A DNA stretch of 64,000 nucleotides, taken from assembly GCA_965221125.1 (NCBI GenBank), contig CBDCRW010000003.1:256001-320000 (forward strand). Direction: 5' to 3'. Below the pieces are notes generated by a model that saw nothing but the letters and a program-made list of their open reading frames with translations, had not been told where the DNA came from and made no database searches. The position numbers and the translations under genes are program-made. Source of the DNA: Alphaproteobacteria bacterium. GTDB lineage: Bacteria; Pseudomonadota; Alphaproteobacteria; UBA828. This document shows positions 15,462 to 63,763 of the stretch, one piece after another (the first letter of the stretch is position 1; the number at the start of each line of letters is the position of its first letter).

Positions 15462-16357
15462 GCGAGGCCGTGGCGCTCCAGGAAGGCGCGGGTCACGGCG
15501 GCGCACTCCGCAGGCTTCTCCAGCTGCAGGAAATGCGTCGCCTCGGGGATGAAATCGTAGTCCATGGCCGAGACAATTCGCTGGTCGAGCGTCGGCAGGT
15601 ACGCATGCGGCAGGGTGGGGTCGGCGCCGATGATCTTCGCGGGGCAGGAGACCAGATCGAGGTCCAGCAGCGGGAAGAAGCTCCGCACGTAATCCATCAT
15701 CTGCGCCTCGTAGTCGCGGGGGCAGCGAAGCTCATAGCCTTCTCCGTTCGCGGCCTCCCGGAGCGTCGTCCGGGCCATGAGCTCGTGTACGCCGGGAACG
15801 GCCCGCTTGAAGGTGGGGAAGATCCCCAGAATCTCGATAAAGTCTTCGCGTCTCCTGAAGTGGTGTCCCCGCCGGCGGATCTGGGCCGCCCCGCGCTCGG
15901 CAGCGTCGTGAAGTTCCGTGTGACTCGCGCCGGCTCTGGTCAGGGGCGGGTCGAACAGGACCAGCGCCGAATAGAGTTTGCTGAACGAGAGCAGCGTCAC
16001 GACCGTGGTGAGCGAGTGAAAGATGCCGACGGTCGGCTTGCTACCAAAGGTGCGGTCCACGGCCTCGAGAATGATGTCGTGGTCGCGGATCATGGTCGGA
16101 ACGTTGTGGTCCGTCTGGGCGCCGACGCCGTTCCAGCCGTGGTTCCTGAGGTCGTAGACCGCAAGGTCGTAGTTGTCCGCGAGCAGCGACCAGAACGGAT
16201 AGTAGAGATCGGCGGCGAGGCCGCTGCCGTGGCTCAGGACGATCCTGGGGCCCGACGGATTGCCGTGCCGCCGCACGGTGGTGACGGTAGCGGCGTCGAG
16301 GCGGACATCCAGCGTCGAAAGGGGCTGGGGTATCTCCCAGACCACGTCTGTCGTCAT
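15458..16357 (-). CDS. Alpha/beta-hydrolase fold protein (sup-associated, candidate thioesterase/transferase)
   Basis: SHGSG, YDLRNHG, degenerate nucleophile elbow FHSLT, C-terminal HFLQLE; its stop overlaps the PKS stop. Confidence 0.8.
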   Translation of the reverse strand: MTTDVVWEIPQPLSTLDVRLDAATVTTVRRHGNPSGPRIVLSHGSGLAADLYYPFWSLLADNYDLAVYDLRNHGWNGVGAQTDHNVPTMIRDHDIILEAVDRTFGSKPTVGIFHSLTTVVTLLSFSKLYSALVLFDPPLTRAGASHTELHDAAERGAAQIRRRGHHFRRREDFIEILGIFPTFKRAVPGVHELMARTTLREAANGEGYELRCPRDYEAQMMDYVRSFFPLLDLDLVSCPAKIIGADPTLPHAYLPTLDQRIVSAMDYDFIPEATHFLQLEKPAECAAVTRAFLERHGLA

Positions 16358-16500
16358 GGCGGAGGGTCGGGGCTCCTCCCGGCGCCGGGCTTCGGGCGGG
16401 GCCTCACCATGGGCCGGATCCGGCTGCGGCCGGTGCCGGAATTGCCGACCGCCCCCGCATTCGGAGGCGGCCGGCCGTGCTCACGTGGCGCCGGGGAGCA

Positions 16501-16731
16501 TCACCCGGCGCGGGCATCGATATAGGTCACGAGCTCGCGCAAGGTGTTGAACTGCAGGCAGTCCTCCGCGACCATGTTCAGGCCGAACTCCTGATTGACC
16601 GTCTTGTAGAACGCGACCGCATCCACCGAAGAGACTCCGGCGTCACTGAACGCCCGATCGAAATCCGGATCGTGGTCCAGGTCGAAGCTGTCGCTGATGA
16701 TTGTCCGCAGGCGGGCTTCCGTTGACGACAT
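16501..16731 (-). CDS. Stand-alone acyl carrier protein (SupB-like)
   Basis: 76 aa from ATG 16731 with RBS AGGGAG; DAGVSSVDAV phosphopantetheine-site-like motif; TLRELVTYID C-terminus. Confidence 0.8.
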   Translation of the reverse strand: MSSTEARLRTIISDSFDLDHDPDFDRAFSDAGVSSVDAVAFYKTVNQEFGLNMVAEDCLQFNTLRELVTYIDARAG

Positions 16732-17051
16732 GCGTATGGTCTCCCTAATCTTCAAGGGTTCGAAGTGAGGCCTCTCACAGGGTTTGGGCGCTTACGGGCC
16801 CGGTCACACGAACGCCACCGCGGAGGCGGGAGGCGCTGCGCAACAACTGCGAGCCATTAGGCATCGACTATGCCGATCCGGTCAAGTCTCGCCATGGCGT
16901 GTTGTTCGGCGCCCAGTTTTGACCCTGCGGGGTCACTCTAAATCAACGAGTTAGCACGCCGATCCGCGTCCAAATTACGCGCCGATCAATATCCCCCCGC
17001 GAACTCGTTGAATTCCCTCGACAGCGGGCGCGCGCCGCTGCACTAGCGCCG

Positions 17052-43223: not shown

Positions 43224-45215
43224 ATGGAGCTTGCACACGCCGGCGCAGACCGGCGAAGTGAGACCATCGCCCGCGAAGCGCCGGGCACCGTAGACGGCAC
43301 TATTCCCGCTCCCGCCCTGGAAGAGGTCATCGACGACGCGGCTGCCGGCCTGCGCGGGCTCCAGCGCGACGACGGCCACTGGGTGTTCGAGCTCGAGGCC
43401 GACGCGACCATTCCGGCCGAGTACATCCTCCTCAACCACTTCCTGGACGAGGTCGATCCCGAGACCGAAGCGCGGCTCGGCAATTACATCCGCAGCCGGC
43501 AGGGCGAAGACGGCGGCTGGCCGCTCTTCCACGGCGGCGCGTTCGACGTGAGCTGCACCGTCAAGGCCTACTACGCGCTGAAGCTGATCGGCGACGACCC
43601 GGACGCGCCGCACATGGCCCGCGCGCGCAACGCGGTGCTCGCCGCCGGCGGGGCGGCGCGGTGCAACGTGTTCACGCGGATCTGCCTCGCCCTCTTCGGC
43701 CAGGTGCCGTGGCGGGCCGTGCCGGCGATGCCGGTCGAGATCATGCTGCTGCCGCGCTGGTTCCCCTTCCACCTGAGCAAGGTCTCCTACTGGTCGCGCA
43801 CCACCATCGTGCCGCTCTCGATCCTGCTCGCGCTCAAGCCCCGGGCGAGAAATCCGCGCGGCGTCGGCATCGCGGAGCTGTTCACCACCCCGGCGGAGCG
43901 GGAATGGCACTACTTCCCGAGGCGCACCGTCACCGAGTGGATGTTCCTCACCCTCGACCGGGCGATCGCGCTCAGCGAGGGGCTGATGCCACGCGCGCTG
44001 CGCCGGAGGGCCATCGACAAGGCGCTCGACTGGTGCATGACGCGGCTCAACGGCGAGGACGGGCTCGGCGCGATCTTCCCGCCGATGGCCAACCTGCTCA
44101 TGGCCTTAGACACGCTGGGCTACCCGGCGGAGCATCCGGCGCGCCAGACCGCCCGGCGCGCTTTGGACCTCCTGCTGGTCGATCCGGTCAACGGCAGCCA
44201 GTATTGCCAGCCCTGCGTCTCGCCGGTCTGGGATACCGGCCTTGCCGCGCTCAGCCTGATGGAGTGCCGCACGGAGGACGAGCAGCGGGCGGCGGAGACC
44301 TCGCTTCCCTGGCTCGCCGACCTCCAGGTCCTCGATGTCGAAGGGGACTGGACGGCGGAGCGGCCCGACACGCCGTCGGGGGGCTGGGCCTTTCAGTATC
44401 GCAACGACCACTACCCGGACGTGGACGACACGGCGGTCGTGGGCATGGCGCTCCACCGCGCCGATCCGCAAGCGCACGGGGAGGCGATCGACCGGGCGGC
44501 CGCCTGGATCGTCGGCATGCAGAACGAGAACGGCGGCTGGGGCGCCTTCGACGCCGAGAACGAGCACTTCTACCTCAACCGAATCCCCTTCGCCGATCAC
44601 GGCGCGCTCCTCGACCCCGCCACCGCGGACGTGAGCGCCCGCTGCGTGAGCTTCCTCTGCCAGATCGGCTATGCGCGCGAGCACGACACGGTGGCGCGGG
44701 GCGTCGCCTATCTCCTCGCCGAGCAGGAGGAGGACGGCTCCTGGTTCGGCCGCTGGGGAACCAACTACATCTACGGCACCTGGTCGGTGCTCTGCGCGCT
44801 GAACGCCGCCGGCGTCGACCCGTCATCGTCGGCCATCCGCAAGGCGGTGGCCTGGCTCGAAGCCAGGCAGCGCGCCGACGGCGGCTGGGGCGAGACCGGC
44901 GACAGCTACTACGGCGAGCGCATCGAGAACTCCTTCGACGTGTGCTCGACCCCGTCGCAGACCGCGTGGGCCGTGCTCGCCCTGATGGCCGTGGGCGAAG
45001 TCGGGAGCGACGCGGTGCGGCGCGGCGTCACTTACCTCTGCAATGCGGAGCGGCAGGGGGCGAAGTGGCTGGAAGACGAGTTCACCGCAGTCGGCTTCCC
45101 ACGCGTCTTCTACCTCCGCTACCACGGCTACAGCGCCTACTTCCCGCTCTGGGCGCTGGCGCGTTACCGCGCGCTGGCGAGCGGCAACGATCACCGCCCG
45201 CGCTACGGCATGTAG
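43224..45215 (+). CDS. shc: Squalene-hopene cyclase
   Basis: YPDVDDTA, multiple QW repeats, SPVWDT, RWGTNYIYGT, GFPRVFYLRYHGY. Confidence 0.96.
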   Translation: MELAHAGADRRSETIAREAPGTVDGTIPAPALEEVIDDAAAGLRGLQRDDGHWVFELEADATIPAEYILLNHFLDEVDPETEARLGNYIRSRQGEDGGWPLFHGGAFDVSCTVKAYYALKLIGDDPDAPHMARARNAVLAAGGAARCNVFTRICLALFGQVPWRAVPAMPVEIMLLPRWFPFHLSKVSYWSRTTIVPLSILLALKPRARNPRGVGIAELFTTPAEREWHYFPRRTVTEWMFLTLDRAIALSEGLMPRALRRRAIDKALDWCMTRLNGEDGLGAIFPPMANLLMALDTLGYPAEHPARQTARRALDLLLVDPVNGSQYCQPCVSPVWDTGLAALSLMECRTEDEQRAAETSLPWLADLQVLDVEGDWTAERPDTPSGGWAFQYRNDHYPDVDDTAVVGMALHRADPQAHGEAIDRAAAWIVGMQNENGGWGAFDAENEHFYLNRIPFADHGALLDPATADVSARCVSFLCQIGYAREHDTVARGVAYLLAEQEEDGSWFGRWGTNYIYGTWSVLCALNAAGVDPSSSAIRKAVAWLEARQRADGGWGETGDSYYGERIENSFDVCSTPSQTAWAVLALMAVGEVGSDAVRRGVTYLCNAERQGAKWLEDEFTAVGFPRVFYLRYHGYSAYFPLWALARYRALASGNDHRPRYGM

Positions 45216-45241: not shown

Positions 45242-46024
45242 ATGGCTGACCGGCCCCGCATCGGCGTCATCACGGGGCTGGCCGCGGAGGCCGCGACACT
45301 TCCCGAGGACTCTTTCCAGATCGCGGTCTCCGCCGCCAATTCCGCACGTGCCGAACAGGCGGCCGAGGCCATGATCGCGGGCGGTGCTGCGCTTCTGGTG
45401 AGCTACGGCTTCGCCGCCGGGCTCGACCCGCGCTTAGGCCCCGGCGCCCTGCTGCTGCCCGAGGCGGTGATCGCCCACGAAGGCAAGGTCGAGACGCCGG
45501 ATCGCGGCGGCGTGCGCGACCAGCTGAGCCGGATGACCTCCTTCAAGCCGAGGGAGGGGCCGGGGGCGCCGGAGCCGCCCCCGCCAGAAGCCTATATGGC
45601 GGTGGACGCGCACGTCCGCGACAGGCTGAGCCGGGGCCTGGACATGCGGGTCGAAGGCGGCGCGATCGCCGGCGTCGACCGGCCGCTGGTGCGCCCCGAC
45701 GAGAAGCTCGCGCTCTTCGCGCAGACCCGTGCCAAGGCCGCGGACATGGAGAGCCACGTCGTCGCCCGCACTGCTGCGGCGGCCGGCGTGCCCTTCGTGG
45801 TGATCCGCGCCATCAGCGACCCGAGCAACCGGGCGCTTCCGCGCGCCGCCGTGGTCGGGATCACGCAAGAGGGCCGGATCGACGCCGGTGCGGTCGCGGT
45901 CGCGCTGCTGAGAAGCCCGTGGGAATGTACCGACATGCTGACGCTCGCGCTCGACGGGGCGCAGGCGATGCACCGGCTACGCCGCGTTGGTCGCCGGGCG
46001 GCGCCCCTTCTCTTGCGCCTCTGA
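45242..46024 (+). CDS. hpnG: Hopanoid-associated nucleosidase/phosphorylase
   Basis: ATG 45242; GLAAEA, SYGFAAGLDP, ADMESH, IRAISDP; directly after shc. Confidence 0.8.
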   Translation: MADRPRIGVITGLAAEAATLPEDSFQIAVSAANSARAEQAAEAMIAGGAALLVSYGFAAGLDPRLGPGALLLPEAVIAHEGKVETPDRGGVRDQLSRMTSFKPREGPGAPEPPPPEAYMAVDAHVRDRLSRGLDMRVEGGAIAGVDRPLVRPDEKLALFAQTRAKAADMESHVVARTAAAAGVPFVVIRAISDPSNRALPRAAVVGITQEGRIDAGAVAVALLRSPWECTDMLTLALDGAQAMHRLRRVGRRAAPLLLRL

Positions 46025-47149
46025 CGCGGCTTCCTCGGCGAGGCGGATTTCGCGCAGCTTCTCCTGCACGTGCCGGTCGAACATGTACTGGGCCGGACGG
46101 GCCTTGCCGAGGTCGATCTCCGGCACCATCGGGCCGGTCGTCCTGATCCCGCGCAGCTTCACCAGCAGGGCCGCCCAGGGCCGGGCGAGCGAATGCTCCG
46201 CCGCCGTCGGCTCGTAGCCGCAGTGGACCATGCAGTCCGCGCACTTCTCGTAGCGCCCGGTGCCGTAGGAGTCCCAGTCGGTCTCCTCCATGAGCGCGCG
46301 GAAGCTGCCGGCATACCCCTCGCCGATCAGGTAGCAGGGCTTCTGCCAGCCGAAGACGTTGCGGGTGGGGTTGCCCCAGGGCGTGCACTGGAAATCCTGG
46401 TTCCCGGCGAGGAAGTCGAGGAAGAGGCTCGACTGGCTGAAGCGCCACTTCTTGCCCGCGCCGCGTGCGAAGATGTCGCGGAACAGCTCCTTGGTCTTGG
46501 TGCGGTTGAGGAAGTGCTGCTGGTCGGGCGCGCGCTCGTAGGAGTAGCCGGGCGAGACCGTGATCGCCTCGACGCCGAGCTCGTCCGTCGCGAAGTCGAA
46601 GAACGCCGCGAGCCGCTCCGCCGGGTGGCCGTCGAACACGGTGGCGTTGACGTTGACGCGGAAGCCCCGCCTCCGCGCCTCCTTGATCGCCGCCACCGCG
46701 CGCTTGAATGTGCCGGGCTGATCGACCGCGTGGTCGTGCTCCTCCTCCAGCCCGTCGAGGTGGACCGAGAAGGTCAGGTACTTCGTCGGTGTGAAGAGAT
46801 CGAGCTTCTTCTTGAGCAGCAGCGCGTTCGTGCAGAGATAGACGAACTTCTTGCGCGCGATGATTTCGGCGACGATCTCGCCGATCTCCGGATGGATCAG
46901 AGGCTCGCCGCCGGGGATCGAGACCATCGGTGCGCCGCATTCGTCCACTGCCTCGAGGCACTCGGCCACGCTCAGGCGCTGGTTCAGGATCTCGGGCGGG
47001 TAGTCGATCTTGCCGCATCCGGGGCAGGCGAGGTTGCAGCGGAAGAGCGGCTCCAGCATCAGCACCAGGGGATAGCGCTTCTCGCCCGCGAGCTTCCTGC
47101 CGACGATGTAGGCGCCGACGCGTATCTTCTGGATCAGCGGGACGGACAC
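45977..47149 (-). CDS. hpnH: Adenosylhopane-forming radical SAM enzyme
   Basis: LMLEPLFRCNLACPGCGKI, CTPWGNPTRNVFGWQKPCY, KCADCMVHCGYE. Confidence 0.93.
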   Translation of the reverse strand: MSVPLIQKIRVGAYIVGRKLAGEKRYPLVLMLEPLFRCNLACPGCGKIDYPPEILNQRLSVAECLEAVDECGAPMVSIPGGEPLIHPEIGEIVAEIIARKKFVYLCTNALLLKKKLDLFTPTKYLTFSVHLDGLEEEHDHAVDQPGTFKRAVAAIKEARRRGFRVNVNATVFDGHPAERLAAFFDFATDELGVEAITVSPGYSYERAPDQQHFLNRTKTKELFRDIFARGAGKKWRFSQSSLFLDFLAGNQDFQCTPWGNPTRNVFGWQKPCYLIGEGYAGSFRALMEETDWDSYGTGRYEKCADCMVHCGYEPTAAEHSLARPWAALLVKLRGIRTTGPMVPEIDLGKARPAQYMFDRHVQEKLREIRLAEEAASEAQEKGRRPATNAA

Positions 47150-47179: not shown

Positions 47180-48160
47180 TCAGCCACCGGATGCGCTGGC
47201 CTCGACCAGCTCGGCCGGCAGCTTGAAGCGCACGCGCTCCTGGATCCCGTCCTGGATCTGGAGCTCGACCGTGTTGATCTCCCGCAGCCGGGCGACCAGG
47301 TCCTGCACCAGCTCCTCCGGCGCCGATGCGCCGGCGGTCACGCCCACGCGGCGCACGCCGTCGAACCACGTGGGGTCGAGGTCGCGGGCATCGTCGATCA
47401 GGTGGGTCGGCACGCCCATCTCCTCGCCGATCTCCCGCAGCCGGTTGGAATTCGAGCTGTTGCGCGCGCCCACCACGAGGATCAACTCGACCTCCTCGGC
47501 GAGCTTGCGCACCGAGGCTTGCCGGTTCTGCGTCGCGTAGCAGATGTCCTTCACGTCGGGGCCGGAGATGCTCGGGAAGCGCGAGGTCAGCGCCTCGATC
47601 ACGTCGCGGGTGTCGTCGACGCTGAGCGTGGTCTGCGTGACGTAGGCGACCTTCTCGGGGTTCGCCACCTCGAGCCTGGAGACGTCGTCCGGCGTGGCGA
47701 CGATGTGGACGCCGTTCTTCACGCGCCCGCTGGTGCCCTCCACCTCGGGATGGCCGTCGTGGCCGATGAGGATGATCTCGCGCCCCTCGCGCTCGTAGCG
47801 CCGCGCCTCGATGTGGACCTTGGCGACCAGCGGGCAGGTCGCGTCGATCACCGGCAGGTTGCGGTGCCCGGCCTCGCTCTCCACCTTCTCCGAGACGCCG
47901 TGGGCGCTGAAGATGGTGACGGCGCCTTCGGGCACCTCGTCGATCTCCTCGACGAAGACCGCGCCCTTCTTGCGCAGGTCGTCGACCACCCGCTTGTTGT
48001 GCACGATCTCGTGGCGGACGTAGACCGGCGGCCCGAAAACTTCAAGCGCGCGCTCGACGATCTCGATGGCTCGCTCGACGCCGGCGCAGAAGCCCCGGGG
48101 CTCCGCCAGAATGACCTGCATGCTGCCCTTCTCGCCCACGCCAGGCTCCTGCTCCATCAT
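47180..48160 (-). CDS. ispH: 4-hydroxy-3-methylbut-2-enyl diphosphate reductase (alternative start 48121)
   Basis: [48 protein letters not shown]. Confidence 0.96.
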
Positions 48161-48643: not shown

Positions 48644-49021
48644 TCACCATTGCCGGTCCACAGCGATGGCGTCGAACACCTCGTCGACCGAGACCAGCGG
48701 GCAGTTCTCCAGCCGGGACTGGGCCGCGAGGAGTCGGTCCCACGGGTCGCGGTGCGCCCAATCGAGCTGCGCCGCATACTCGGCGTGCTCGTGGGTGATG
48801 GGGAGGTCCTCGACCGCGTTGCGCCTGAGCGCGGCGCGCAACTCCTGCGGCGGCAGGGCGATGCGGCTGCGCTGCGCCTTCCACTCAAGCTCGTAGATGG
48901 AGACGGCGCTGACGAGCACGGCGTTCCCGCGATCGAGAATCAGTCCCCTGGCGGTCGCGGACAGTCTCCGGCTGCCCGCGACCCACCAGTAGACGGCATG
49001 GCTGTCGAGAAGCAGCCTCAC
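48644..49021 (-). CDS. PIN-domain toxin (VapC-like)
   Basis: LLLDSHAVYW, SAVSIYE, HRDPWDRLLAAQ. Confidence 0.88.
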   Translation of the reverse strand: MRLLLDSHAVYWWVAGSRRLSATARGLILDRGNAVLVSAVSIYELEWKAQRSRIALPPQELRAALRRNAVEDLPITHEHAEYAAQLDWAHRDPWDRLLAAQSRLENCPLVSVDEVFDAIAVDRQW

Positions 49022-49299
49022 GAAGCCTTCGGCGGACCCCGCCAGATGCCCAGCGCGTCGCTGAATTCGCCGGCGTCGATTGCGGCCTGCTCCGGATCCT
49101 CGTGGTCGAAGAGGTCATCCGGCAGGTTGAGGTGCTTGAGCGGCGCGGCTTCGCGTTGCGCAGCCTCGGCCGGCGGGACGATGCGCGCCTGTGGTTCGCT
49201 ACCCTTGGTGATCATGATTTCCTCGCCCTCTTTCGCGCGCGCCAGCAAGCTCGAGAAGCTGGCGCGGGCTTCGGCAACCTTGAAAATCTTGGTCGGCAT
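49018..49299 (-). CDS. Phd/YefM-family antitoxin
   Basis: ATG 49299; VAEARASFSSLLARAKEGEEIMITK...ARIVP; overlaps the toxin start. Confidence 0.85.
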   Translation of the reverse strand: MPTKIFKVAEARASFSSLLARAKEGEEIMITKGSEPQARIVPPAEAAQREAAPLKHLNLPDDLFDHEDPEQAAIDAGEFSDALGIWRGPPKAS

Positions 49300-49476
49300 G
49301 CTCCGATTCCCCTCGTGCGCGCCGGGACCGACGACGGCGCCCGCTCCATTCCCACCTCTATGTACAACATAGTTGGTCATATTCCAAGCACAATCGGCAA
49401 GACCCTCTCCGGCGCACGCAGATTGACGGCGGCGGCTGGGTAATCATGATGCCACGGCAAGCAGCGCGGGGGCGGC

Positions 49477-51482: not shown

Positions 51483-52784
51483 ATGAACAAACACATTAGT
51501 ACCGAAGAATTTCTCTTGAAAAAAGCAGGAGAAGATACCGAATTTCGCGCGCGTCTCCTCGCCAGACCCAAAGAAACGATCGAAAGCGAGTTCGGCGTAA
51601 CGCTGGACAAGAACCACACGATTTGCGTGCACGAAGAAAGCGATACCGCGACGCATCTGGTACTTCCGCCGCGCAGCAAGCTCGGCGAGGAAGAACGGGA
51701 AGCCACGAGAACCGGCGCCGCATCGCTCGCGTTCCTTCGCAAGACGCTCCACGACCCCGCGCCGCCGCTTCGCCCTCCCGCCCCTCGGCGTGCGCGCGCC
51801 CCAACGAGCGCTGCGACCCCCGCAGCACTTGCAAGAGCGGGCCGAGACAGCATCCGCCGCGCTCTCGAATTCCTGGAAACCACAATTGACGAGAACGGGG
51901 CCTGGCACTGCATCCGCTTCAACATGGCCGACCCGGACATACCCCGGCATTTCGAACGACCCGCCTTCGTTTCCGCTCTCTGTGTGCTTGCCCTGGAATG
52001 TTGCGGCGACGCGCGGGCCAAGGCCATGTGCACCGCCGCAAAGGCGTATCTCGCTGATACCATCGAATATCCGGGGCTGTGGCGCTACTACCGCCATCTG
52101 CCCCAAGACCTCGACAGCACGACGCTCTGTTCGCTTGTTATCGGCACCCATCCCTGGATTTTTCTGGGACGAAACGTGCCAACAATCTTGGCGAACCGCG
52201 ACGAGAACGGGCTGTTCAGAACCTGGGTGCTGGCGGAAGGCGAACCCGACGTCGTGGCGCCCTTTCGCATCGAAGCCGACCCCGTCGTCAATGCGAACGT
52301 CATCGCCTATCTCGGCGACCGCCCCGAAACGAGGGATGCCCAGCGGTGGCTGGAAGGCTTGATTGCCGAAGGCAGCCTGGAGGGCTCCTCCAAGTGGTAT
52401 CCCGACGCGGTCGCGATCTGCTACGCAATCGCCCGCGCCATGATCCGCGCGGCGCCTGCCCTCGAACACTCACGCCCGGTCCTCGCGGAGCGCATCCTGA
52501 ACCTGCGCGACGAAGACGGAGGGTTTGGCAACATCCTCAAGACCGCGCAGGCCGTCTCGTCGCTATACAACGTCGGACGCCTTGAAAGCCTCGACGCGAA
52601 ACGCACGGTGGAAGAGTTCACAAGTACGCAGCGAGAGGACGGAAGCTGGCCTGAGCTTCTCGCGTTTGGCGATCAGTACCTGAAGTGGGGAGCGGTGGGG
52701 CAAATCGGGCATGGCTCCGAAGCCGTAACCTCTGCCTTTTGTATCGAAGCTCTGGAACGCCTTGTAGAACTATTGGAGTCCTGA
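51483..52784 (+). CDS. NHLP-leader domain fused to a squalene-cyclase/prenyltransferase (alpha/alpha barrel)-like domain
   Basis: Residues 1-78 parallel the precursor leader (EFRARLLARPK..IE.EFG..L...I.VHEES....HLVLPP...LGEEERE); later PQDLDSTT, DPVVNANV, RDEDGGFG, QREDGSW. Confidence 0.7.
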   Translation: MNKHISTEEFLLKKAGEDTEFRARLLARPKETIESEFGVTLDKNHTICVHEESDTATHLVLPPRSKLGEEEREATRTGAASLAFLRKTLHDPAPPLRPPAPRRARAPTSAATPAALARAGRDSIRRALEFLETTIDENGAWHCIRFNMADPDIPRHFERPAFVSALCVLALECCGDARAKAMCTAAKAYLADTIEYPGLWRYYRHLPQDLDSTTLCSLVIGTHPWIFLGRNVPTILANRDENGLFRTWVLAEGEPDVVAPFRIEADPVVNANVIAYLGDRPETRDAQRWLEGLIAEGSLEGSSKWYPDAVAICYAIARAMIRAAPALEHSRPVLAERILNLRDEDGGFGNILKTAQAVSSLYNVGRLESLDAKRTVEEFTSTQREDGSWPELLAFGDQYLKWGAVGQIGHGSEAVTSAFCIEALERLVELLES

Positions 52785-52861: not shown

Positions 52862-54469
52862 ATGCCGCAAGACACGGCCGTTGGCGGTGACATGGCCCCG
52901 AACAAGGCTGAAGTCACGCGGCACGTTGCGCCGTCGTTTCTCAACGCCCTGCCGCACTATCTGCCACTGGGCATATTCCCGCTGATCGTGATTGCCGCGC
53001 TCTACGGCGGCTGGTGGTTGTTGCCGGCCTTCGTGTTCATGGGCGTCGCGGGGCCGCTCGATAGGGCGCTCGGCCTCGACGGGCGCAACATGGACCCGGC
53101 GATGACGTCGGAACGGCGCCTCTTCTGGCACAATCTGCCGGTCTGGGTCTGGGCGTTTCTCTGGCCAGCGACGCTGATCTTCGCCATGTGGCAAATCCTC
53201 GTCGCGGATCAGTTCGCCCTTTGGGAAGACGTGCTGCTGGCGATCATTCTGACCATGGAAGCGCAGGCCGTGTTCGTGGTCGGTCACGAGCTGGTTCATC
53301 GCCGCGCGACCTGGGAAAGGCGGCTCGGAGAATTCCTGCTCGCCTCCGCCTCCTATCCGCAATACGCCACGGAGCATGTCTATATCCACCATGCCAAGGT
53401 CGGCACGCCGCACGACGTAGGCTCCGCGCCCAAGGGGGAAAGTTTCTGGCGATATTTCCCCAGGGAAGTCGCAAGCAACCTCACCAACTCCTGGAAAGTC
53501 GCCGGCGAGCGCCTGGCACGGCGCCGGTTGCCCGTGTGGCATTACAGCAATCCGTTCTGGCGCTACGGCATCGCCCTCGCGTGCTGGTACGGGCTGGTGT
53601 TCTGGATGAGCGGCGGCTGGGCGGTGCCGGTCTTCGCCTTCCTCGGGCTCTGCTGCGTCTTTTCCATGAAGATCAGCAATTATTTTCAGCACTACGGGCT
53701 GCGCCGCATCCGTCTGCCCAACGGCCGGTGGGAGAAGGTATTGCCGCGCCATTCCTGGAGCGCCGACTGGAAGTTCAGCAACTGGATGTTCTTCAACATG
53801 CAGCGCCATGCGGATCACCATGCCGCCGCATCCCGCCACTACCCCCTGCTCCAGGCTCTCGGCTCCGACGAATCGCCGGTCCTTCCGGGAACATATGCCG
53901 ACATGATGAACATCGTGCTGCGGCCCAAGCGCTGGTTCGCGAAGATGGATCCGCTGGTCGATCAATGGCGCGCGCACTTCTACCCGCAGATCGACGACTG
54001 GAGCGCCTACGACAGCCGCCTTTCCGCCGCGCGGCCCGACGCCTTCGAGGCGATCGTCGAGATCTTCGGCGCGGCCCCGCGGCTTGCGGCGTGGATCGAA
54101 CGCAATTCGGAGCTCCTGGATAACCTGCAGGACCGCGAGTTCACCGACCTCGACCTGCCGAAGGGATTCGGACCGGACCAGGAATACGAAACCATCGCGC
54201 GGCGCGGGCTCGCGCGACTCTATTGGACGCACGAAATGGGCGTCCCGGACCTGAAGGACCGGGTCTCCGAATTGCCGATGGCCGATGCCAGGGAAGCCGC
54301 CGAGATCGTGCGGAACTGGTCGAACGACAAGGCGTTCCAGATCGGCATGCACGTGGTGCGCGGAAATCTTTCTCCGGCCGAGGCACAGATCGCGCTCTCC
54401 AACCTGGCCGAGGCGGCAGTCTCCACCGTGCTGGCTGCCGTCGCTGCGGATCGCGTCGACCGCGCCGGG
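52862..54469 (+). pseudogene. 5' part of an AlkB-type di-iron membrane hydroxylase/desaturase fused to a GlnE-like domain, transposon-interrupted (808 aa when restored)
   Basis: His boxes HELVH, EHVYIHH, NYFQHYG, QRHADHH; frame restored as ...DRAG-PLRGGG... after removing the element and one CCGGG. Confidence 0.82.
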
Positions 54470-54838
54470 TGTTGTTTTCCGGTCTAGCCGGATAGAAGCA
54501 CGGGTTTTTTTCTCACTTTGATTGGTTGGTGGATTTCCCGGGATGGTGGCCGAGTGCGGGAAGGACGCTGCCTGCGGCATTTTTTTGATCCTCAGCAGAA
54601 TCCTCATTGCTGTTGAAGCTGTGGAGCGGTGGGCGCGAGATCGGCGAGTGTGGTCAGGCGGTGGGCAAGCGCCAGCTTGTCCACGGGCTGTCCACACGGT
54701 CCGCAGGACGCCGATCGGTCCGCAGGACGCGTCCACGGCTCCACAGCTTGGCGGCGGCGGGGAGCGTCCGTAATCTTGGCCTCTCACTGAACGACAAAGA
54801 GAGGCCCGGGGGACGGAACTCCCGCCGGGCCAGGGCCG

Positions 54839-55474
54839 GTGCAGCTTCGCTACGAAACGGGGCTCACCAGCGAGGAATACGTTAAGACCGAGGCGTGGCG
54901 CGACGCAAGGCTTGAGCGCTGCCCGAATCACCCGCACGGCGGATGTTCTGTGGCAAGCCACGGCACCTACGAGCGGAAGACCCCGCCCGGCGCAAGGGTT
55001 CCTCGCTGGTATTGCCGTGAGAGCCATACGACCATCGGCCTGCTGGCCGACTGTCTGGCGGCGCGGCTGCCGGGCACGCTCGATGCGCTGGAAGCGGTTG
55101 TTGTCGTGGCGGAGGAGGCCGGCAGCCTGGAGGAGGCAGCGGACGAGGTGCGCTGCCCCGAGGACGAGGACGCCATCGAGCTTCCCGGCGCCGTGCGTTG
55201 GATCCGCCGCAGGCTGAAGCTTGTGCACGACGCGCTTGTGCGCGTCATCGGCCTGATCCCCGACCTGCTCGCGGGCTGCGCGCCCACCATGAGCGCGGTG
55301 CGCGAGCGTCTGAAGAGCGACAGCGCGTTGATGGAACTGCGCGGCCTGGTCGCCGGGCAGCTCCGGACGCTACCCGCGCCTCTGGGCTTCCAACCCCACG
55401 GCATCGACGTGGGGAATCGCAAACCGCAGTTCCAACAACGGGCGGGGCCGGACCCGCCGCCGGAGAGTTCGTAG
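54839..55474 (+). CDS. Transposon ORF1 (copy 2)
   Basis: Translation identical to 19988-20623. Confidence 0.65.
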   Translation: MQLRYETGLTSEEYVKTEAWRDARLERCPNHPHGGCSVASHGTYERKTPPGARVPRWYCRESHTTIGLLADCLAARLPGTLDALEAVVVVAEEAGSLEEAADEVRCPEDEDAIELPGAVRWIRRRLKLVHDALVRVIGLIPDLLAGCAPTMSAVRERLKSDSALMELRGLVAGQLRTLPAPLGFQPHGIDVGNRKPQFQQRAGPDPPPESS

Positions 55475-55519
55475 CGTGACGATCCCGGGGCCAGGGAGTC
55501 CCTGAACGAGGATCGCACC

Positions 55520-56848
55520 ATGAACAGCTCAGACGACGACCTTCGCCAACAGATCGCGCTCTTCCGATACGACGTCATCGCCGATCTGGTGCATCTGCCC
55601 GTGGGTGCACCGGGTGCCGGCGCGATGATGCGCGCCAAAGCCGAGAAGACCTACACGATCCCCGGAACCACCAGGACCCGGGTCGCCGCCGAGACCATGC
55701 GGCGCTGGATCAAGGACTACCGCTACGGCGGCTTCGACGCGCTCTACCCCAAGCCCCGCACCGACCGGGGGAAGCCCCGGCGGCTGCCGCCCGAGGTCGC
55801 CGAGCGCCTCATCGCGCTGAAGACCGAGAACGACGCATTGTCGGTTCGCGCCATCATCCAGAAGGTCAAGGAGGAGGGTATCGACCACCCGCTCGCCTCG
55901 TCCACCGTGCACCGCCTCTTCAGCCGCGAGGGCCTGTTCGACAAGAAGCCGCCCGACGGGGCGGATCGCCGCCGCTTCGCCTTCCGGCATGCCGGCGAGA
56001 TGTGGATGAGCGACGTCATGCACGGACCCAAGGTCCGGCACGGCCGAACCCGGCGCAAGACCTACCTGATCGCCTTCATCGACGACGCCACCCGCGTCAT
56101 CCCGTTCGCCGCCTTCGCCATGGCGGAGAACACTGCGGCGTTCCTGCCGGTGTTCAAGGACGCGCTGATCCGGCGCGGCCTCCCGGCCCGCTTGTACGTC
56201 GACAACGGAAGCGCCTACCGCTCCCGTCATCTCTCCCTGGTCTGCGCCAGGCTCGGCGTTGCGTTGATTCACGCAAGGGCGTTCCAGCCAGCGGGAAAGG
56301 GTAAGATCGAGCGCTTCTTCCGCACCCTCCGGGCCGGCTGGCTCCGCCACCTCGGCGATGACGTCGACAGCCTGGAGGCGCTCAACCGCAGCCTCTGGGC
56401 CTGGATCGAGGGGGAGTATCACAACAGCCCGCATCGTGGCCTCGACGAGGGGCGCACCCCGCTTGAGCAGTGGGCGCTGGCCTCGGCCGGCGTGCGCTAT
56501 CCCGACGCCACCATGGACCTCGACGATCTGTTCCTCTTCGAGGCCAGGCGCCGTGTCTACAAGGACCGCACCGTTAGTCTGAACGGCCGCGTCTACGAGG
56601 TCGACGCCCTCCTGGTGGGTCAGAACGTCATCCTGCGCTACGACCCGGCCGCGCCGCCCTCGCGCCCTCTCGACGTGGTCCATGACGGCAAGCCGGCCGG
56701 CAAGGCCAGCCCTCTCGACGCCTACGCCAATACCGCCGTCAGGCGCACCTACCCGGCCAGGGAGATCGAGGCCGAAGATCCGGCGCCCGAGCCTCCGCCC
56801 TCGCCGCTGGCCATGCGCAACCTCAAGGACAAGAAGGAGGACGAGTGA
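55520..56848 (+). CDS. DDE transposase (copy 2)
   Basis: Translation identical to 20669-21997. Confidence 0.93.
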   Translation: MNSSDDDLRQQIALFRYDVIADLVHLPVGAPGAGAMMRAKAEKTYTIPGTTRTRVAAETMRRWIKDYRYGGFDALYPKPRTDRGKPRRLPPEVAERLIALKTENDALSVRAIIQKVKEEGIDHPLASSTVHRLFSREGLFDKKPPDGADRRRFAFRHAGEMWMSDVMHGPKVRHGRTRRKTYLIAFIDDATRVIPFAAFAMAENTAAFLPVFKDALIRRGLPARLYVDNGSAYRSRHLSLVCARLGVALIHARAFQPAGKGKIERFFRTLRAGWLRHLGDDVDSLEALNRSLWAWIEGEYHNSPHRGLDEGRTPLEQWALASAGVRYPDATMDLDDLFLFEARRRVYKDRTVSLNGRVYEVDALLVGQNVILRYDPAAPPSRPLDVVHDGKPAGKASPLDAYANTAVRRTYPAREIEAEDPAPEPPPSPLAMRNLKDKKEDE

Positions 56849-57648
56849 TGTACCTGCGCCACTTCGCCTTCACCCGCCTGCCCTTCGAGACCCCGGCAGA
56901 GACCGACGAGCTGTTCGAGTCCAACGCGCGCCGCGAGGCCGAGGCCAGGCTCGGCCACCTCATCGACCTGCGCGGCATCGGCCTGCTCACCGGCGAGGTG
57001 GGCTCCGGCAAGACCACCGTGTGCCGGCATCTGACCGCGCAGCTTCATCCAGGCCTCTACCGGGTCCACTACGTCTCGCTGACCACGGGCAACGTGCTCG
57101 ACATGTACAAGGCGATCGCGTGGGAGATCGGCCTGCCCATCGAGCGCTCCCGCGCCTCGGCCTATCAGGCCATCCGAAACGAGATCTCCCGCCTCGTCAC
57201 CGAGGCCAAGCAGCTGCCGGTCCTCGTCATCGACGAGGCCCATCATCTGCGCAACGACGTCCTTGAGGACCTGCGCCTGCTCACCAACTTCGCCATGGAT
57301 GCAGAGCAGCGCCTGTGCCTCGTCCTCGTCGGTCTGACCGAGCTCAGGCGCCGCCTGGCCATGGCCATGCACGAATCCCTCAGCCAGCGCCTCGTCGTCC
57401 GCCACCACCTGAGCGGTCTCGACCGCGACGAGGTCGACGCTTACATCAAGCACCGCCTCAGGCTCGCGGGATGCGAACTGCCGCTGTTCGAAGAGCCCGC
57501 CGTCGAGGCCCTGTTCCAGGGCGCGCGCGGCCTGCCGCGCCAGATCAACCGCATCGCCCACTACGCGCTCTCCGCCGCCGCTCTCGACGAGGCGAGGACC
57601 GTCAGTGCCGACCACCTGCAGCACGCGCTCGAGGAACTGCGGCCATGA
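56845..57648 (+). CDS. ExeA-family AAA+ ATPase (copy 2)
   Basis: Translation identical to 21994-22797. Confidence 0.9.
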   Translation: MMYLRHFAFTRLPFETPAETDELFESNARREAEARLGHLIDLRGIGLLTGEVGSGKTTVCRHLTAQLHPGLYRVHYVSLTTGNVLDMYKAIAWEIGLPIERSRASAYQAIRNEISRLVTEAKQLPVLVIDEAHHLRNDVLEDLRLLTNFAMDAEQRLCLVLVGLTELRRRLAMAMHESLSQRLVVRHHLSGLDRDEVDAYIKHRLRLAGCELPLFEEPAVEALFQGARGLPRQINRIAHYALSAAALDEARTVSADHLQHALEELRP

Positions 57649-58685
57649 CCGGCTTCCCGACCCGCGCCCCGATCGAGCTGGAGGAGCGGCCGCGCGAGCA
57701 GCAATGGCTGGTGGACACGCTATGGGGCGAGCAGGCCGTCGGCATCGTCGGCGGCGAGCCGAAGTGCGGCAAGTCCATCCTGGCGCTGGACCTCGCGGTC
57801 GCAGTCGCCGCCGGCGTCCCATGCCTGCGGCACTTCGCCCCGGCCCGGCCTGGCCCGGTCCTGCTGTTCGCCGCAGAAGACGCCGGCCACCTCGTGCGCA
57901 AGCGCCTGCAGGGGATCGCCCGCGCCGCAGGCGCCCGCTTCGAGACCCTCGACATCGCCGTCATCGACGTGCCCACACTGCGCCTCGACCATCTCGACGA
58001 CCGCCGCCGCCTGCAGCAGACCGTGGAGCGCATCGCACCGCGCCTCGTGGTCCTCGACCCCCTGGTCCGCCTGCACGGCGTGGACGAGAACACGGTTGCG
58101 GACGTCGCCCCGATCCTCGGCTTCCTGCGCGACCTGCAACGCCGCTTCGAGACCGCCGTCCTCCTCGTCCACCACGCCCGCAAGAGCGGGGCCACGAGGC
58201 CGGGGCAGGCCCTGCGGGGCAGCAGTGAGCTGCACGCCTGGGGGGACTCGAACCTCTACCTGCGCCGCCGGGACCGGCAGACCCTCATGACCGTCGAGCA
58301 TCGCGCCGCACGCGGTCTCGACGACATCGAGATCGAGCTCAAGGAAGACGGAGAGGAGCCCTCCTTCCGGCTGCGCCAGCCGCCCACGGCCGGCGGCGGG
58401 GCGCCTCAGCCCGAAACACCCGAATGCCGCGTTCTCAAGGCGCTCGCCGACGCCGGGGCGCCGCTCTCGCAACGCCAGATCCGGGAACGCGCCGCGACCC
58501 GGCACAAGACCGTCGGCGTAATCTTGCAAAAGCTCGTCCAGGAGGGTCGCGTCGCGCGCAACGCCGAGGGCGGCTACAGCGTCGTCGCAGGCGCAGCGGA
58601 CAAGCGGGCGGCGGCCGCCGCCGCCAACGGCAGCAGTCGGCCGCAGGCCCCGCGGTTCCCGGAGCCCGGTTCCGCCAACGCCTAG
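57645..58685 (+). CDS. AAA_25/RepA-type helicase-like ATPase with wHTH (copy 2)
   Basis: Translation identical to 22794-23834. Confidence 0.82.
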   Translation: MTGFPTRAPIELEERPREQQWLVDTLWGEQAVGIVGGEPKCGKSILALDLAVAVAAGVPCLRHFAPARPGPVLLFAAEDAGHLVRKRLQGIARAAGARFETLDIAVIDVPTLRLDHLDDRRRLQQTVERIAPRLVVLDPLVRLHGVDENTVADVAPILGFLRDLQRRFETAVLLVHHARKSGATRPGQALRGSSELHAWGDSNLYLRRRDRQTLMTVEHRAARGLDDIEIELKEDGEEPSFRLRQPPTAGGGAPQPETPECRVLKALADAGAPLSQRQIRERAATRHKTVGVILQKLVQEGRVARNAEGGYSVVAGAADKRAAAAAANGSSRPQAPRFPEPGSANA

Positions 58686-59090
58686 GGGTTCGAGCCGGAA
58701 CCGCCGTCGGGAACCACCCTTCCCCAACGGTCCGGAAGGCGCTGCGCCTCCACCGGGATACTACGTCAGGTGAGCGGCCAGTCCGTGGCCGGAAGCTTGC
58801 TTCAGGCCATGGCAGCACTTCGTCGTGTGGACGGTGGCGAGTCACCCGAAGGGCCGAAGCGAAGCGCAGGAGCGGCGCAGCCGCTTGACGCGCCGACGGC
58901 CGCGCGACACCTCGTCAGCTCTCCTCAAGCACCAGTCCAAACCTCAATCAGACAGCGACCCCGGACCGCCCGCAGAGACCATGAGCTCCTACGCTTCGAT
59001 CCGGAAAAGACCGAGCAATCTGGGAAATCAGGGCAGCGATCACGTCAAATAATCTGGGAGATTCGGCGTCAAATAACGTGCGAAACAACA

Positions 59091-59914
59091 CCGGGCCGCT
59101 GCGGGGCGGCGGGATCGCCGCGGTATTCCTCGGCGATCTCGCGAGCCGGGAGGCGTACCCCGGCGTTGCCATCGACATGCTGTTCGTCCACGACGGCCCG
59201 GAAATCGGCGAGAATGAACGCCTGTGTCGGCGCTTCCGAAAATCTCTCACCGCTCTCGCGCGCGACAGTCTGTTGTTCTCCCCGGTTCCGCCCCGCGCGC
59301 AGGCCCTTCCCGCGCTGCCGCTTTCCGAGCTGGCCGAGCGTTGTAGCGATCTTTCTGCCGACGGAATTCCCGTCCTCACCAGGGCACGCTGCGTGTTCGC
59401 GTGCGGCGATTCCGATATCGGCCGCCGCTTCGGCGAAGCGCGGGGCGAAGCGCTGGCCGCGTGCGTGGCAGACGAGTCCCTGATCGCCCAGCTTCGTGCG
59501 CGGCGCGAAGACCCGGCCGCAACGGGCGTCTCCAACTACGCCCGCATGCGCGGCGGCCTGGAGGATGTCGAGAGGGCCGCGCGAACCCTGCAGGTGACGA
59601 ATGCCGACGCCGCCGTCCCCGACCCGGCGCCGAGCGCTGCGGCGGTGCTCGATGCCGCCGGTGCCCAGGACCTGGCGCAGGCTGCGGCCTTGTGGCGGGA
59701 CCTGCAGGGCATCACGCGCCTCGTCGGCGATGAAAAATTCGACGCGGCCGAGGCGCGGCCCAGGGTCAGGTCTCTCGTTGCGAGCGCGTGCGGGCACGAG
59801 GATTTCGACGCGCTGACGGCGGCGGTCACTGATACCGCATCCCGCGCCGCCGCCCGGATCGACTCGCTTGGTCTCGCGGGCGCCAAGGACGCGCCCGCTC
59901 TTTCGCGCACCTGA
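59091..59914 (+). pseudogene. 3' part (GlnE nucleotidyltransferase-like, degenerate) of the interrupted AlkB fusion
   Basis: AAVFLGDLASREAYPGVAIDMLFVHD resembles GlnE AVIAMGKLGGxELxxxSDxDLIF; RGGLEDVE resembles GlnE GGxxDIEF. Confidence 0.65.
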
Positions 59915-62273: not shown

Positions 62274-63392
62274 ATGGACATTGACGAGGCAGTCGCGCGC
62301 ACTCAGGACCGTCTCGCCGAGGAAGGCGGCACCATGGGCGATCTGCTCGGGCACTTCCGCAGCAGGGTTTCGACGGCGCTTGTGGGCGATGCGGAATGGC
62401 AGCGCGTACTCGACTGCGCCGGCACGCTTCCCATCACGATGGGGGCTCTTCCCTTCGGCTTCGAGCTGCCGCTGCACGAACGCGAGCCGCAGGCGGATTT
62501 CGGCGTCTCGCTCGCGAGCGGCACCCGGCCGGCTGCGCATTTCCTGGAGCGCGCCCTCGCCGACAAGACGGATGAGACCGCGCTGGCAATCGCCCGGCTG
62601 TTCGGCCGGATGGAAAGCGAAGACTCGCCGCTGCGCGACATCGTCGGCCGCAAGCTGATGCTGGAATACGACATCGGCTCGGCAGAGGGCGGCGAACGTT
62701 CGTTGCCGGGACTGTTTCTGCGGCCCGGCGAGCGCCCGATCATGGGCGGCTGCGCTCAGGCGGACGATGTCGCCACGGTGGTCGACGCGCTCGTATCCTG
62801 CCTGGGCTGGGAGACGAACGATGCGGCGCGGGAGAACGTCAGGCGCGTTTACCTGGCGCAGCCGGAGGACACGCGCATGGATTCGTTCGGCGTGTTTCCG
62901 TCCCGTTCACGGGCAATCCGGCTCGCGATCATGGGCTTCAAGTCGGGGCGGGAAACGTGTTCCTATCTCGAAGACACGGGCTGGCCGGGCGAGACCTCGG
63001 CCGTGGCCTCCGTGATCGCCCGCTTCAGGGAGCGCGCGAACATTGTCAGGGTCGGGGTGAATATCGACGTGCACGAAGAGGGCGTCGGCCCGACGCTCGG
63101 CCTCACGCTCATCGTCAAGCAGAGATACACGAAAGAGTCGCGCTACTGGCTGGACGGCCTGACCGATTGGGACCCGTTCCTCAAGGCGCTCAGCCACGAG
63201 GACCTCGTCGTTCCGGAGAAGCTCGAAGCGCTGGCCGACTGGGTTTCGAAACCGACGCCGTTGTTTGCGAAGTCCGGGCGCTACGTGCTGCTGCGCGGCA
63301 TTCACCACATGAAGCTGGTCGTAGCCGACAATCGGCTCCGAAAGGCGAAGGCCTACGTGTTCATGGTGCTTTCCGCAGCAGCTTCCGCCTAA
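62274..63392 (+). CDS. Uncharacterised 372-aa RiPP-associated protein, putative ABBA-fold prenyltransferase
   Basis: ATG 62274 with RBS GAGGA; FGFELPL..PQADF, LMLEYD, YLEDTGWPG, VGPTLGL, HHMKL...KAKAYV alternating strand pattern. Confidence 0.5.
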   Translation: MDIDEAVARTQDRLAEEGGTMGDLLGHFRSRVSTALVGDAEWQRVLDCAGTLPITMGALPFGFELPLHEREPQADFGVSLASGTRPAAHFLERALADKTDETALAIARLFGRMESEDSPLRDIVGRKLMLEYDIGSAEGGERSLPGLFLRPGERPIMGGCAQADDVATVVDALVSCLGWETNDAARENVRRVYLAQPEDTRMDSFGVFPSRSRAIRLAIMGFKSGRETCSYLEDTGWPGETSAVASVIARFRERANIVRVGVNIDVHEEGVGPTLGLTLIVKQRYTKESRYWLDGLTDWDPFLKALSHEDLVVPEKLEALADWVSKPTPLFAKSGRYVLLRGIHHMKLVVADNRLRKAKAYVFMVLSAAASA

Positions 63393-63511: not shown

Positions 63512-63763
63512 CTACCAGCAGCAGCAGAGACCGGCCGAGATGGCTTCGAGCTGCTCTTCGGTAATGTTCGGGTCCGGCGGCAACGCCAGATGCACCGTCT
63601 GCATGTCGCTCTCGTGGACCTTGATGGTCATCGATTCCGGAATCGTGATGCCCAATTCCTCGCTGATGGTGTTCTTCGGGTCCGCGAGAAGCTGTTGCCT
63701 GAAGTCCGAATCCAGAGAGGACTTCTCGACAATGTGTTGCAGCATTTCATCGCCACTTCTCAT
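63512..63763 (-). CDS. srpE: NHLP (proteusin) RiPP precursor with core LCCCW
   Basis: DFRQQLLADPK..I.EELG..IP....IKVHE....HLALPP..ITEEQLEAISAG followed by LCCCW*; RBS GGAGG. The core matches sponge SrpE as recalled. Confidence 0.9.
   Translation of the reverse strand: MRSGDEMLQHIVEKSSLDSDFRQQLLADPKNTISEELGITIPESMTIKVHESDMQTVHLALPPDPNITEEQLEAISAGLCCCW

Follow-up and report, generated by a model that had tools for sequence, protein, structure and literature searches.

Why would a terpene cyclase begin with what looks like a copy of the leader of a neighbouring peptide precursor? This question is raised by a locus of an Alphaproteobacteria bacterium (UBA828; assembly GCA_965221125.1), in which a stretch of 64,000 nucleotides (contig CBDCRW010000003.1, positions 256,001-320,000, forward strand), hereafter the window, carries an open reading frame (ORF) at 51483-52784 on the plus strand. 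It encodes a protein of 433 amino acids (aa), here called the fusion protein. The original prediction for this ORF described a leader-like domain of the NHLP kind, a linker and a barrel like that of class II terpene cyclases, and the analysis found this architecture as claimed. The fusion gene belongs to a cluster for a peptide that is made by the ribosome and modified after translation (RiPP), which its genes identify as the published srp cluster. At about even confidence, we propose that the fusion protein and a 372-aa neighbour form a split prenyltransferase-cyclase pair, with the leader-like N-terminus retained as a docking module. The parts of the fusion gene are as follows.

51483-52784, plus strand: the whole fusion gene, encoding an NHLP-like domain, a linker and a class II terpene-cyclase-like barrel (433 aa)
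51483-51716, plus strand: residues 1-78, the NHLP-like (leader-like) domain, from BLASTP to the precursor, TIGR03793 and 8tb1_A
51717-51779, plus strand: residues 79-99, a strongly conserved segment after the pseudo-cleavage Gly, from column counts and a ratio of nonsynonymous to synonymous substitution (dN/dS) of 0.12
51780-51836, plus strand: residues 100-118, a variable Pro/Ala/Arg linker (mean pairwise identity 0.31, dN/dS 0.78)
51837-52781, plus strand: residues 119-433, a single (alpha/alpha) barrel of class II terpene-cyclase fold, from AlphaFold2 (AF2), Foldseek and a PDB profile search
52107-52121, plus strand: D209-L-D211-S-T213, a variant class II DxDD acid motif, from conservation and alignment with AsDMS D333N
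52629-52649, plus strand: Q383-R-E-D-G-S-W389, the best-kept QW-type repeat (G387 invariant, Q383 and W389 in at least 90% of 80 sequences)

The fusion is both widespread and mobile. Among contigs sampled at one genome per species, 139 stretches matched and 99 encode a relative of the fusion protein, which is therefore not unique to this genome; 80 of these were fetched, and their orthologues are 62-87% identical to the fusion protein. A protein search returned at least 120 near-full-length relatives with 72-92% identity, all of 431-503 aa. Of 80 orthologues, 63 have an ATG aligned with the start codon. The loci retrieved span Alpha- and Gammaproteobacteria, Nitrospirales, Nitrospinota, Gemmatimonadota, Acidobacteria, Chloroflexota and Latescibacterota, and several record titles name sponge taxa. 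Of 20 other species in the genus of the window, 3 yielded a full-length copy; 20 genomes drawn from further genera in its family, order and class yielded none. Conservation is counted below over 81 sequences (80 for the QW repeats), and dN/dS values are medians over 115-130 of 130 sequence pairs with a pair identity of 78-93%.

The N-terminus resembles the precursor encoded nearby. Residues 9-78 align with it ungapped, at 41% identity over 70 aa (BLASTP, E 3e-17). The predicted match to the NHLP profile was obtained (TIGR03793, leader_NHLP, E 2.7e-11), though at 43.2 bits it falls short of the curated threshold (50.9 bits), one that the true precursor clears at 70.0 bits. As a single sequence, the N-terminus also matches the solved NHLP leader 8tb1_A (E 3.9e-4). 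Like the NHLP leaders SrpE and MprE7 (PDB 8tb1; TIGR03793), it keeps the signature residues of the fold (DxxFRxxLLxxPK, HVHE and HLxLPP) and is as long as they are up to the Gly; its three N-terminal helices are modelled with a predicted local distance difference test (pLDDT) of 83-90. It differs from these leaders in its score under the family cut-off and in having neither the L(X)4L motif nor a double-Gly-type site. Where a family member shows L(X)4L, a Gly-Gly or Ala-Gly site and a short core, the fusion protein has Thr/Ala-Gly, followed by an enzyme part of 355 residues. The degenerate end of the domain had been read correctly, with EEREATRTG at residues 70-78 against EQLEAISAG at residues 70-78 of the precursor, and the domain is best described, as predicted, as an uncleaved leader mimic and not a precursor.

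The pattern of conservation separates what the domain has lost from what it keeps. At the I/L-x4-L site of the precursor, 76 of 81 sequences have a hydrophobic residue at position 67, and all 81 have Arg at position 72. Helix 1 is variable across orthologues and does not resemble that of the precursor. Glu71 and Gly78 are invariant (81/81), the latter ending the domain where the precursor has its AG cleavage site, and 65 of 81 sequences carry Thr at position -2 of this pseudo-site, in place of the Ala of the precursor. The domain is under purifying selection and is not decaying, with a dN/dS of 0.27 for residues 5-78. Residues 79-99, where the core of a precursor would sit, give 0.12, which is below the 0.175 of the barrel, and include the conserved S81, L85, D91-P92-A93-P94 and R97. 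The Pro/Ala-rich linker of the original prediction was found at residues ~90-118, of which residues 100-118 are the variable part. Residues 50-90 have a pLDDT of about 55 despite their conservation (55 for residues 81-90, 85 for 91-100), which is typical of a segment that becomes ordered on a partner.

The barrel, in turn, belongs with class II terpene cyclases. The AF2 model of the fusion protein (pLDDT 86.8, predicted template modelling score 0.79) forms an alpha/alpha barrel, and Foldseek agrees with this predicted fold. Ten-residue blocks from residue 111 on are mostly above a pLDDT of 90, with three dipping to 58-81. Foldseek ranks 1-38 are all terpene cyclases, with AsDMS as the best match (3e-12), followed by 8pak, MstE, 6ij1 and SsDMS, and squalene-hopene cyclase (SHC) also among the top. 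A profile of 80 sequences searched against the PDB matched AsDMS (E 8.7e-26), SHC (2e-25), the single-domain 360-aa 8paj/8pak (1e-19) and AstC (5e-18), as well as SsDMS, 6ij1 and MstE. The C-terminal domain passes the Pfam family SQHop_cyclase_C with 29.5 bits against a cut-off of 26.1. The barrel's nearest relatives of known structure, such as AsDMS and MstE, are class II cyclases of the monodomain or HAD-fused type, a placement that is new here. The predicted QW-like repeats are present as four Gly-x-Trp/Phe repeats, DENGAW (136-141), DENGLF (240-245), DEDGGF (343-348) and QREDGSW (383-389), in which G139, G243, F245, Q383, G387 and W389 are invariant or nearly so. With MstE, AsDMS/SsDMS and AstC (PDB 6sbb, 9mhs/9m7d, 7xq4, 22ty) the fusion protein shares the barrel fold, but those enzymes lack a leader-like domain and take small molecules as substrates, and identity in the structural alignments is only 16-22%.

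The altered acid motif had been taken as a sign of non-canonical chemistry. The strings are as described, DLDST at residues 209-213 against DVDDT in the SHC of the window, but the conclusion does not follow from them. In the profile alignment, D-L-D-S-T falls on D-L-D-T-T of the drimenol synthase AsDMS, the same place in both proteins, and the wider barrel family, mostly free-standing proteins of 300-340 aa with 27-45% identity, carries DLDDT. D209, L210, D211 and S212 are each found in 81 of 81 sequences, and D211 aligns with the Asn of the AsDMS D333N crystal entries and with the middle Asp of the SHC motif DVDDT; we take it to be the equivalent of Asp376 of the Alicyclobacillus enzyme. Since D211 keeps the position of the acid Asp, DLDST reads by alignment as a normal variant of the motif.

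Other identities for the barrel were considered and rejected. The beta subunit of protein prenyltransferases (PF00432) gave 11.9 bits for Prenyltrans against a cut-off of 26.5 and was absent among the structural matches listed. For a LanC-like cyclase, there was no LanC family in the Pfam listing and none among the structural matches listed. A glycoside hydrolase was rejected on the Pfam and Foldseek results. In three other proteins (P0189, P0267 and P0222), a barrel of the same family has a DUF2332 ahead of it or a sulfotransferase-like domain after it.

The fusion gene is tied to a YcaO/precursor cluster, as originally claimed, and the remaining genes of this cluster within the window are the following.

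52862-54469, plus strand: second cluster gene, 5' part of 536 codons, membrane fatty-acid-desaturase/alkane-hydroxylase-like with a GlnE-like start (Pfam FA_desaturase 2.6e-28 and GlnE 1.6e-4)
54470-59090, no strand: mobile insertion of ~4.6 kb within the second cluster gene, from blastn against L001 (a related locus used as the intact reference), boundary sequences and an inverted repeat
59091-59914, plus strand: 3' part of the second cluster gene, from tblastn/blastn collinearity with L001
59947-62265, plus strand: YcaO cyclodehydratase with a fused leader-binding/E1-like part, SrpC-type (PF02624 1.7e-95, TIGR03604, TIGR03882)
62274-63392, plus strand: the 372-aa protein, predicted to have an ABBA aromatic-prenyltransferase fold (AF2, Foldseek)
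63512-63763, minus strand: NHLP precursor of 83 aa, a 252-bp gene with core LCCCW after ...ITEEQLEAISAG, SrpE-type (TIGR03793, 70 bits)

Just beyond the end of the window (locus L081) lie genes for an MMPL/sterol-sensing transporter, an ATP-binding cassette (ABC) transporter, a C39-peptidase ABC transporter, a LolA-like protein and a Trp halogenase, the last at L081 11387-12661. An LCCCW precursor, a YcaO, a Trp halogenase and sponge-associated bacteria mark the window as holding the published srp cluster. The srp (sponge-derived RiPP proteusin) clusters were first reported by Nguyen et al. 2021 (doi 10.1021/jacs.1c03474) and are said to be shown in Supplementary Fig. 1 of PMC10858898. The precursor features match the description of srp from sponge microbiomes in bioRxiv 10.1101/2023.06.09.544420. 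The 252-bp NHLP precursor gene, the LCCCW core, ITEEQL ahead of the cleavage site, the YcaO, the Trp halogenase and the spread over many phyla of sponge-associated bacteria are shared, and no difference was found at cluster level, except that the second gene is split by a transposon in the window copy. As SrpC is the YcaO and SrpE the precursor, the order of fusion gene, second gene, YcaO, 372-aa gene and precursor makes the fusion gene probably srpA and the 372-aa gene probably srpD. A 2025 review calls srp exceptionally abundant in sponge microbiomes and cryptic, with product and role unclear (PMC12426817). The srp literature covered, which does not include the discovery paper, assigns no function to the fusion gene or the 372-aa gene. 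The identity of the cluster and the nature of the 372-aa neighbour, a prenyltransferase-like partner, had both escaped the original prediction.

SAGLCCCW ends 65 of 66 precursor orthologues; the exception has the core LCCSW (L070 17427-17675). A second kind of NHLP precursor occurs in 7 of 80 loci, 52-56% identical and 2.4-3.7 kb past the LCCCW precursor, with a core that begins MCCC or WCCC after the same EEQLEAISAG (L014 18603-18848, L022 18420-18665, L025 20371-20616, L035 19664-19909, L041 19664-19909, L049 19864-20109 and L056 15432-15677).

The linkage of these genes was assessed by tblastn (E of 1e-10 or lower, plus minimum identity and coverage) over the 66 loci with at least 8 kb downstream of the fusion gene. 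The 372-aa gene and the LCCCW precursor are each present in 64 of 66, the C39 transporter in 62, YcaO in 58, the second cluster gene in 53 and the halogenase in 48. Over all 80 loci, the next gene after the fusion gene is the second cluster gene in 43, YcaO in 18 and the 372-aa gene in 17, with none recognised in 2. Where clusters are split, the fusion gene, the 372-aa gene and the precursor remain together as a compact block. Six of the 17 loci with the 372-aa gene next have no YcaO within the fetched locus, and all five genomes searched hold one elsewhere.

An unfused relative of this block exists in a genome of the same genus. At L082 (G021:C1:1968001-1988000), three genes of the system are grouped (8410-9555, 16111-17265 and 17259-17564), with transporters between them. 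One encodes a barrel with no leader domain (40% identity), likewise with DLDS, another a protein homologous to the 372-aa protein (30% identity, E 1e-35), and the third an NHLP precursor of 101 aa, which has a 19-residue core ending in Trp and is 45% identical to residues 9-85 of the fusion protein. The 20 kb of this locus gave no YcaO match. This trio supports a triad of cyclase, 372-aa protein and precursor, and descent of the N-terminus of the fusion protein from a precursor.

The 372-aa protein is conserved about as much as the fusion protein. Neither Pfam (nothing below E 0.09) nor NCBIfam supplies a family for it. Its AF2 model (pLDDT 89.8) consists of repeated helix-strand-strand-helix units, and the Foldseek matches listed for it are all ABBA prenyltransferases (37/37; best E 3.5e-6, template modelling (TM) scores 0.36-0.55), including EpzP, NphB/Orf2, FamD1, TleC, CymD, DMATS1 and PagF. 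Atlas leads point to Trp_DMAT (score 0.90) and PTase_Orf2 clusters. From this model, the protein probably folds as an ABBA prenyltransferase and is a probable partner of the cyclase, an assignment that is new here. A 698-aa homologue of the barrel has a weak Trp_DMAT match in its N-terminal half, ahead of the barrel; BLASTP of the 372-aa protein against two longer barrel fusion homologues gave no match. A complex prediction with the 372-aa protein, the precursor and the fusion protein scored 0.42, against 0.29 for a single control, figures that tell neither for binding nor against it. At one locus (L079 11337-12452 and 12670-13767), the 372-aa gene occurs as tandem copies, 51% and 55% identical to that of the window.

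A precedent for such a pair is found in published prenyltransferase/cyclase (P/C) fusions. According to a review (PMC13290415), NctPC, which consists of an ABBA transferase domain and an MstE-like cyclase domain, first attaches a geranylgeranyl chain to a peptide Trp and next cyclises that chain, and ChrPC acts likewise with a different transferase fold; the original source is Hubrich et al. 2024 (doi 10.1016/j.chempr.2024.07.026). As far as that review describes them, these systems would share with srp an MstE-like monodomain class II cyclase with a prenyltransferase, a RiPP pathway and a Trp acceptor, and NctPC also shares the ABBA barrel of its transferase part, which in srp is predicted. 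They differ in that the srp activities would lie on separate proteins and, judging by the description, in that the leader-like domain stands on the srp cyclase alone. With the two folds as predicted and linkage of their genes in 64 of 66 loci, the srp pair looks like a split P/C system. The likeness to NctPC predicts a terpenylated C-terminal Trp in the srp product.

By analogy, the pathway may proceed as follows. The ABBA-fold transferase would add an isoprenoid chain to the precursor, with the C-terminal Trp of LCCCW as the likeliest site, and the barrel would then cyclise the attached chain by protonating a double bond. Published work on srp reports that the YcaO SrpC makes three thiazolines, from the three Cys of this core, and that SrpI brominates the C-terminal Trp (PMC10286304; bioRxiv 10.1101/2023.06.09.544420). 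The predicted end product is a small terpenylated lipopeptide, which fits the MMPL and LolA-like export genes beside the peptidase-containing ABC transporter (PCAT). Residues 1-99 of the fusion protein would be a fossil copy of the precursor, leader plus start of the core, that lost its cleavage and L(X)4L signals and may be kept by purifying selection for protein-protein docking. Gene linkage favours the prenyltransferase or the precursor over YcaO as the docking partner.

Several points weigh against this proposal. Prenylated srp products are reported nowhere in the literature covered, of which the srp discovery paper was not a part, and the published reconstitutions used only precursor, YcaO and halogenase (PMC10286304). 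The ABBA assignment comes from a predicted model with modest TM-scores (0.36-0.55) and no sequence-family match, and comparing profiles of the 372-aa family and the 698-aa fusion gave no match. The nearest solved relatives of the barrel use free farnesyl diphosphate (FPP), so that cyclisation could precede transfer or bypass the peptide. The acceptor residue is a guess, and the docking role and the partner of the leader-like domain are reached by indirect argument. Finally, the second gene is broken by a transposon, and the pathway may therefore be incomplete in this genome.

Two alternatives deserve weight, and both appear improbable to us. The first, which the original prediction put forward alongside docking on the precursor, holds that the leader-like domain fills the leader-binding site of YcaO, the RiPP recognition element (RRE), tethering the cyclase or activating YcaO in trans. 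The 41% identity to the true leader, the YcaO gene directly after the fusion gene in 18 of 80 loci and the YcaO elsewhere in all five genomes whose local block has none are in its favour, as is the report that SrpC alone is poorly active and hard to purify, as if missing a partner (PMC10286304). However, a related NHLP/YcaO pair is reported to require leader helix 1 and both Leu of L(X)4L for RRE binding (PMC12455567), and the same Leu pair is described as serving halogenase and C39 domains too (PMC12455567; PMC12537861; PMC12715784). With L(X)4L lost to Arg72 in 81 of 81 sequences and helix 1 unconserved, leader-like use of the YcaO, halogenase and C39 sites is unlikely. The six loci that place the fusion gene next to the prenyltransferase-like gene with no YcaO in the fetched locus add to the doubt, as does the unfused cluster with no YcaO match in its 20 kb. 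Docking of this kind on YcaO is thus unlikely, to judge from these residues.

The second alternative, which we consider equally improbable, reverses the order: the barrel would cyclise free FPP or geranylgeranyl diphosphate, the ABBA enzyme would transfer the cyclic group, and the leader-like domain would only hold the enzymes together. The nearest solved relatives, AsDMS and SsDMS, do use free FPP, and drimenyl diphosphate synthases offer a model for this route. Against it, the published P/C fusions prenylate first and cyclise second, in the account of the review (PMC13290415), and an equally close structural match is MstE, whose substrate chain already sits on an aromatic ring.

Two further explanations fare far worse. 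That the N-terminus is a working leader seems very improbable; for instance, the C39 ABC transporter would cleave the protein behind Gly78 and export it, and the barrel would work outside the cytoplasm. Gly78 is invariant and such a transporter lies within the cluster, but the residues read by C39 and other leader readers are gone, namely the second Leu of L(X)4L, which PMC12715784 and PMC12537861 tie to C39 binding, and the Ala at position -2, and the segment after Gly78 is conserved as strongly as the enzyme. That the barrel is a non-catalytic binding, carrier or self-protection protein for a hydrophobic product is likewise very improbable; the fold is known in binding proteins too (relatives of the barrel give weak TED_complement matches), but the acid motif keeps its two Asp without exception and the dN/dS of the barrel is low.

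The split prenyltransferase-cyclase pair remains the reading we prefer. The second cluster gene is uninterrupted in L001 and most loci, and in the window the insertion splits it after codon 536 and leaves the fusion gene intact. The ends of the insertion are 8-bp inverted repeats (TGTTGTTT / AAACAACA), with a direct CCGGG duplicated on both sides. It encodes a 211-aa ORF of no family, an rve/Mu-transposase_C protein, a TniB-like AAA_22 ATPase and an AAA_25+MarR protein. The G+C content is 61.6% for the fusion gene, 56.3% for the precursor gene and 71.5% for YcaO, compared with 68.8% for the genome. Metatranscriptome contigs of one library, from relatives 88-95% alike, cover parts of the fusion gene (e.g. 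52210-52414) and the next gene, which is no proof that the fusion gene is transcribed.

Upstream of the fusion gene, the window holds genes of other kinds, named by eye with no family search run. The 663-aa SHC with DVDDT lies at 43224-45215, 6 kb upstream, followed by ORFs at 45977-47149 (minus strand) and 47180-48160 (minus strand), which resemble HpnH (hopanoid radical-SAM) and IspH. A link between the fusion gene and these hopanoid genes was rejected, as they are absent from the conserved block of related loci. Overlapping ORFs of 125 and 120 aa at 48644-49380 (minus strand) look like a PIN-domain toxin/antitoxin.

How unusual is such a fusion? Full-text literature searches, which did not cover the srp and NctPC discovery papers or the supplements, found none that links NHLP or proteusins to a fused terpene cyclase. 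A search for longer proteins containing the precursor leader gave only 10 matches from 41 candidates. The best seven share 81-92% identity with the entire precursor and so look like over-long calls of its gene; no other leader-enzyme fusion emerged, which says little in either direction. In engineered fusions of lanthipeptide synthetases and cyanobactin heterocyclases, a leader is covalently joined to a RiPP enzyme, and in those laboratory constructs it activates the enzyme that it normally binds. The fusion described here differs from them in being natural and in carrying a leader copy whose known binding motif is gone.

What would this mean for the srp family? Tentatively, and with less confidence than we place in the split pair itself, the srp product may be a terpene-peptide hybrid, a thiazoline pentapeptide whose brominated C-terminal Trp bears a cyclised isoprenoid, and the cyclase may be the first natural RiPP tailoring enzyme to carry a copy of the leader of its substrate in cis, as a built-in adaptor. 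If so, this copy would pair with the structured leader of the substrate, or nucleate a complex of prenyltransferase and cyclase, possibly with YcaO. Reading two unexplained srp genes as a split prenyltransferase and cyclase could lead to the real product, and might explain the partial products obtained by reconstitution with YcaO and halogenase (PMC10286304). A natural enzyme with a degenerate copy of the leader of its substrate would be a new way to organise RiPP pathways, and would also offer a ready-made design for leader-guided enzyme recruitment.

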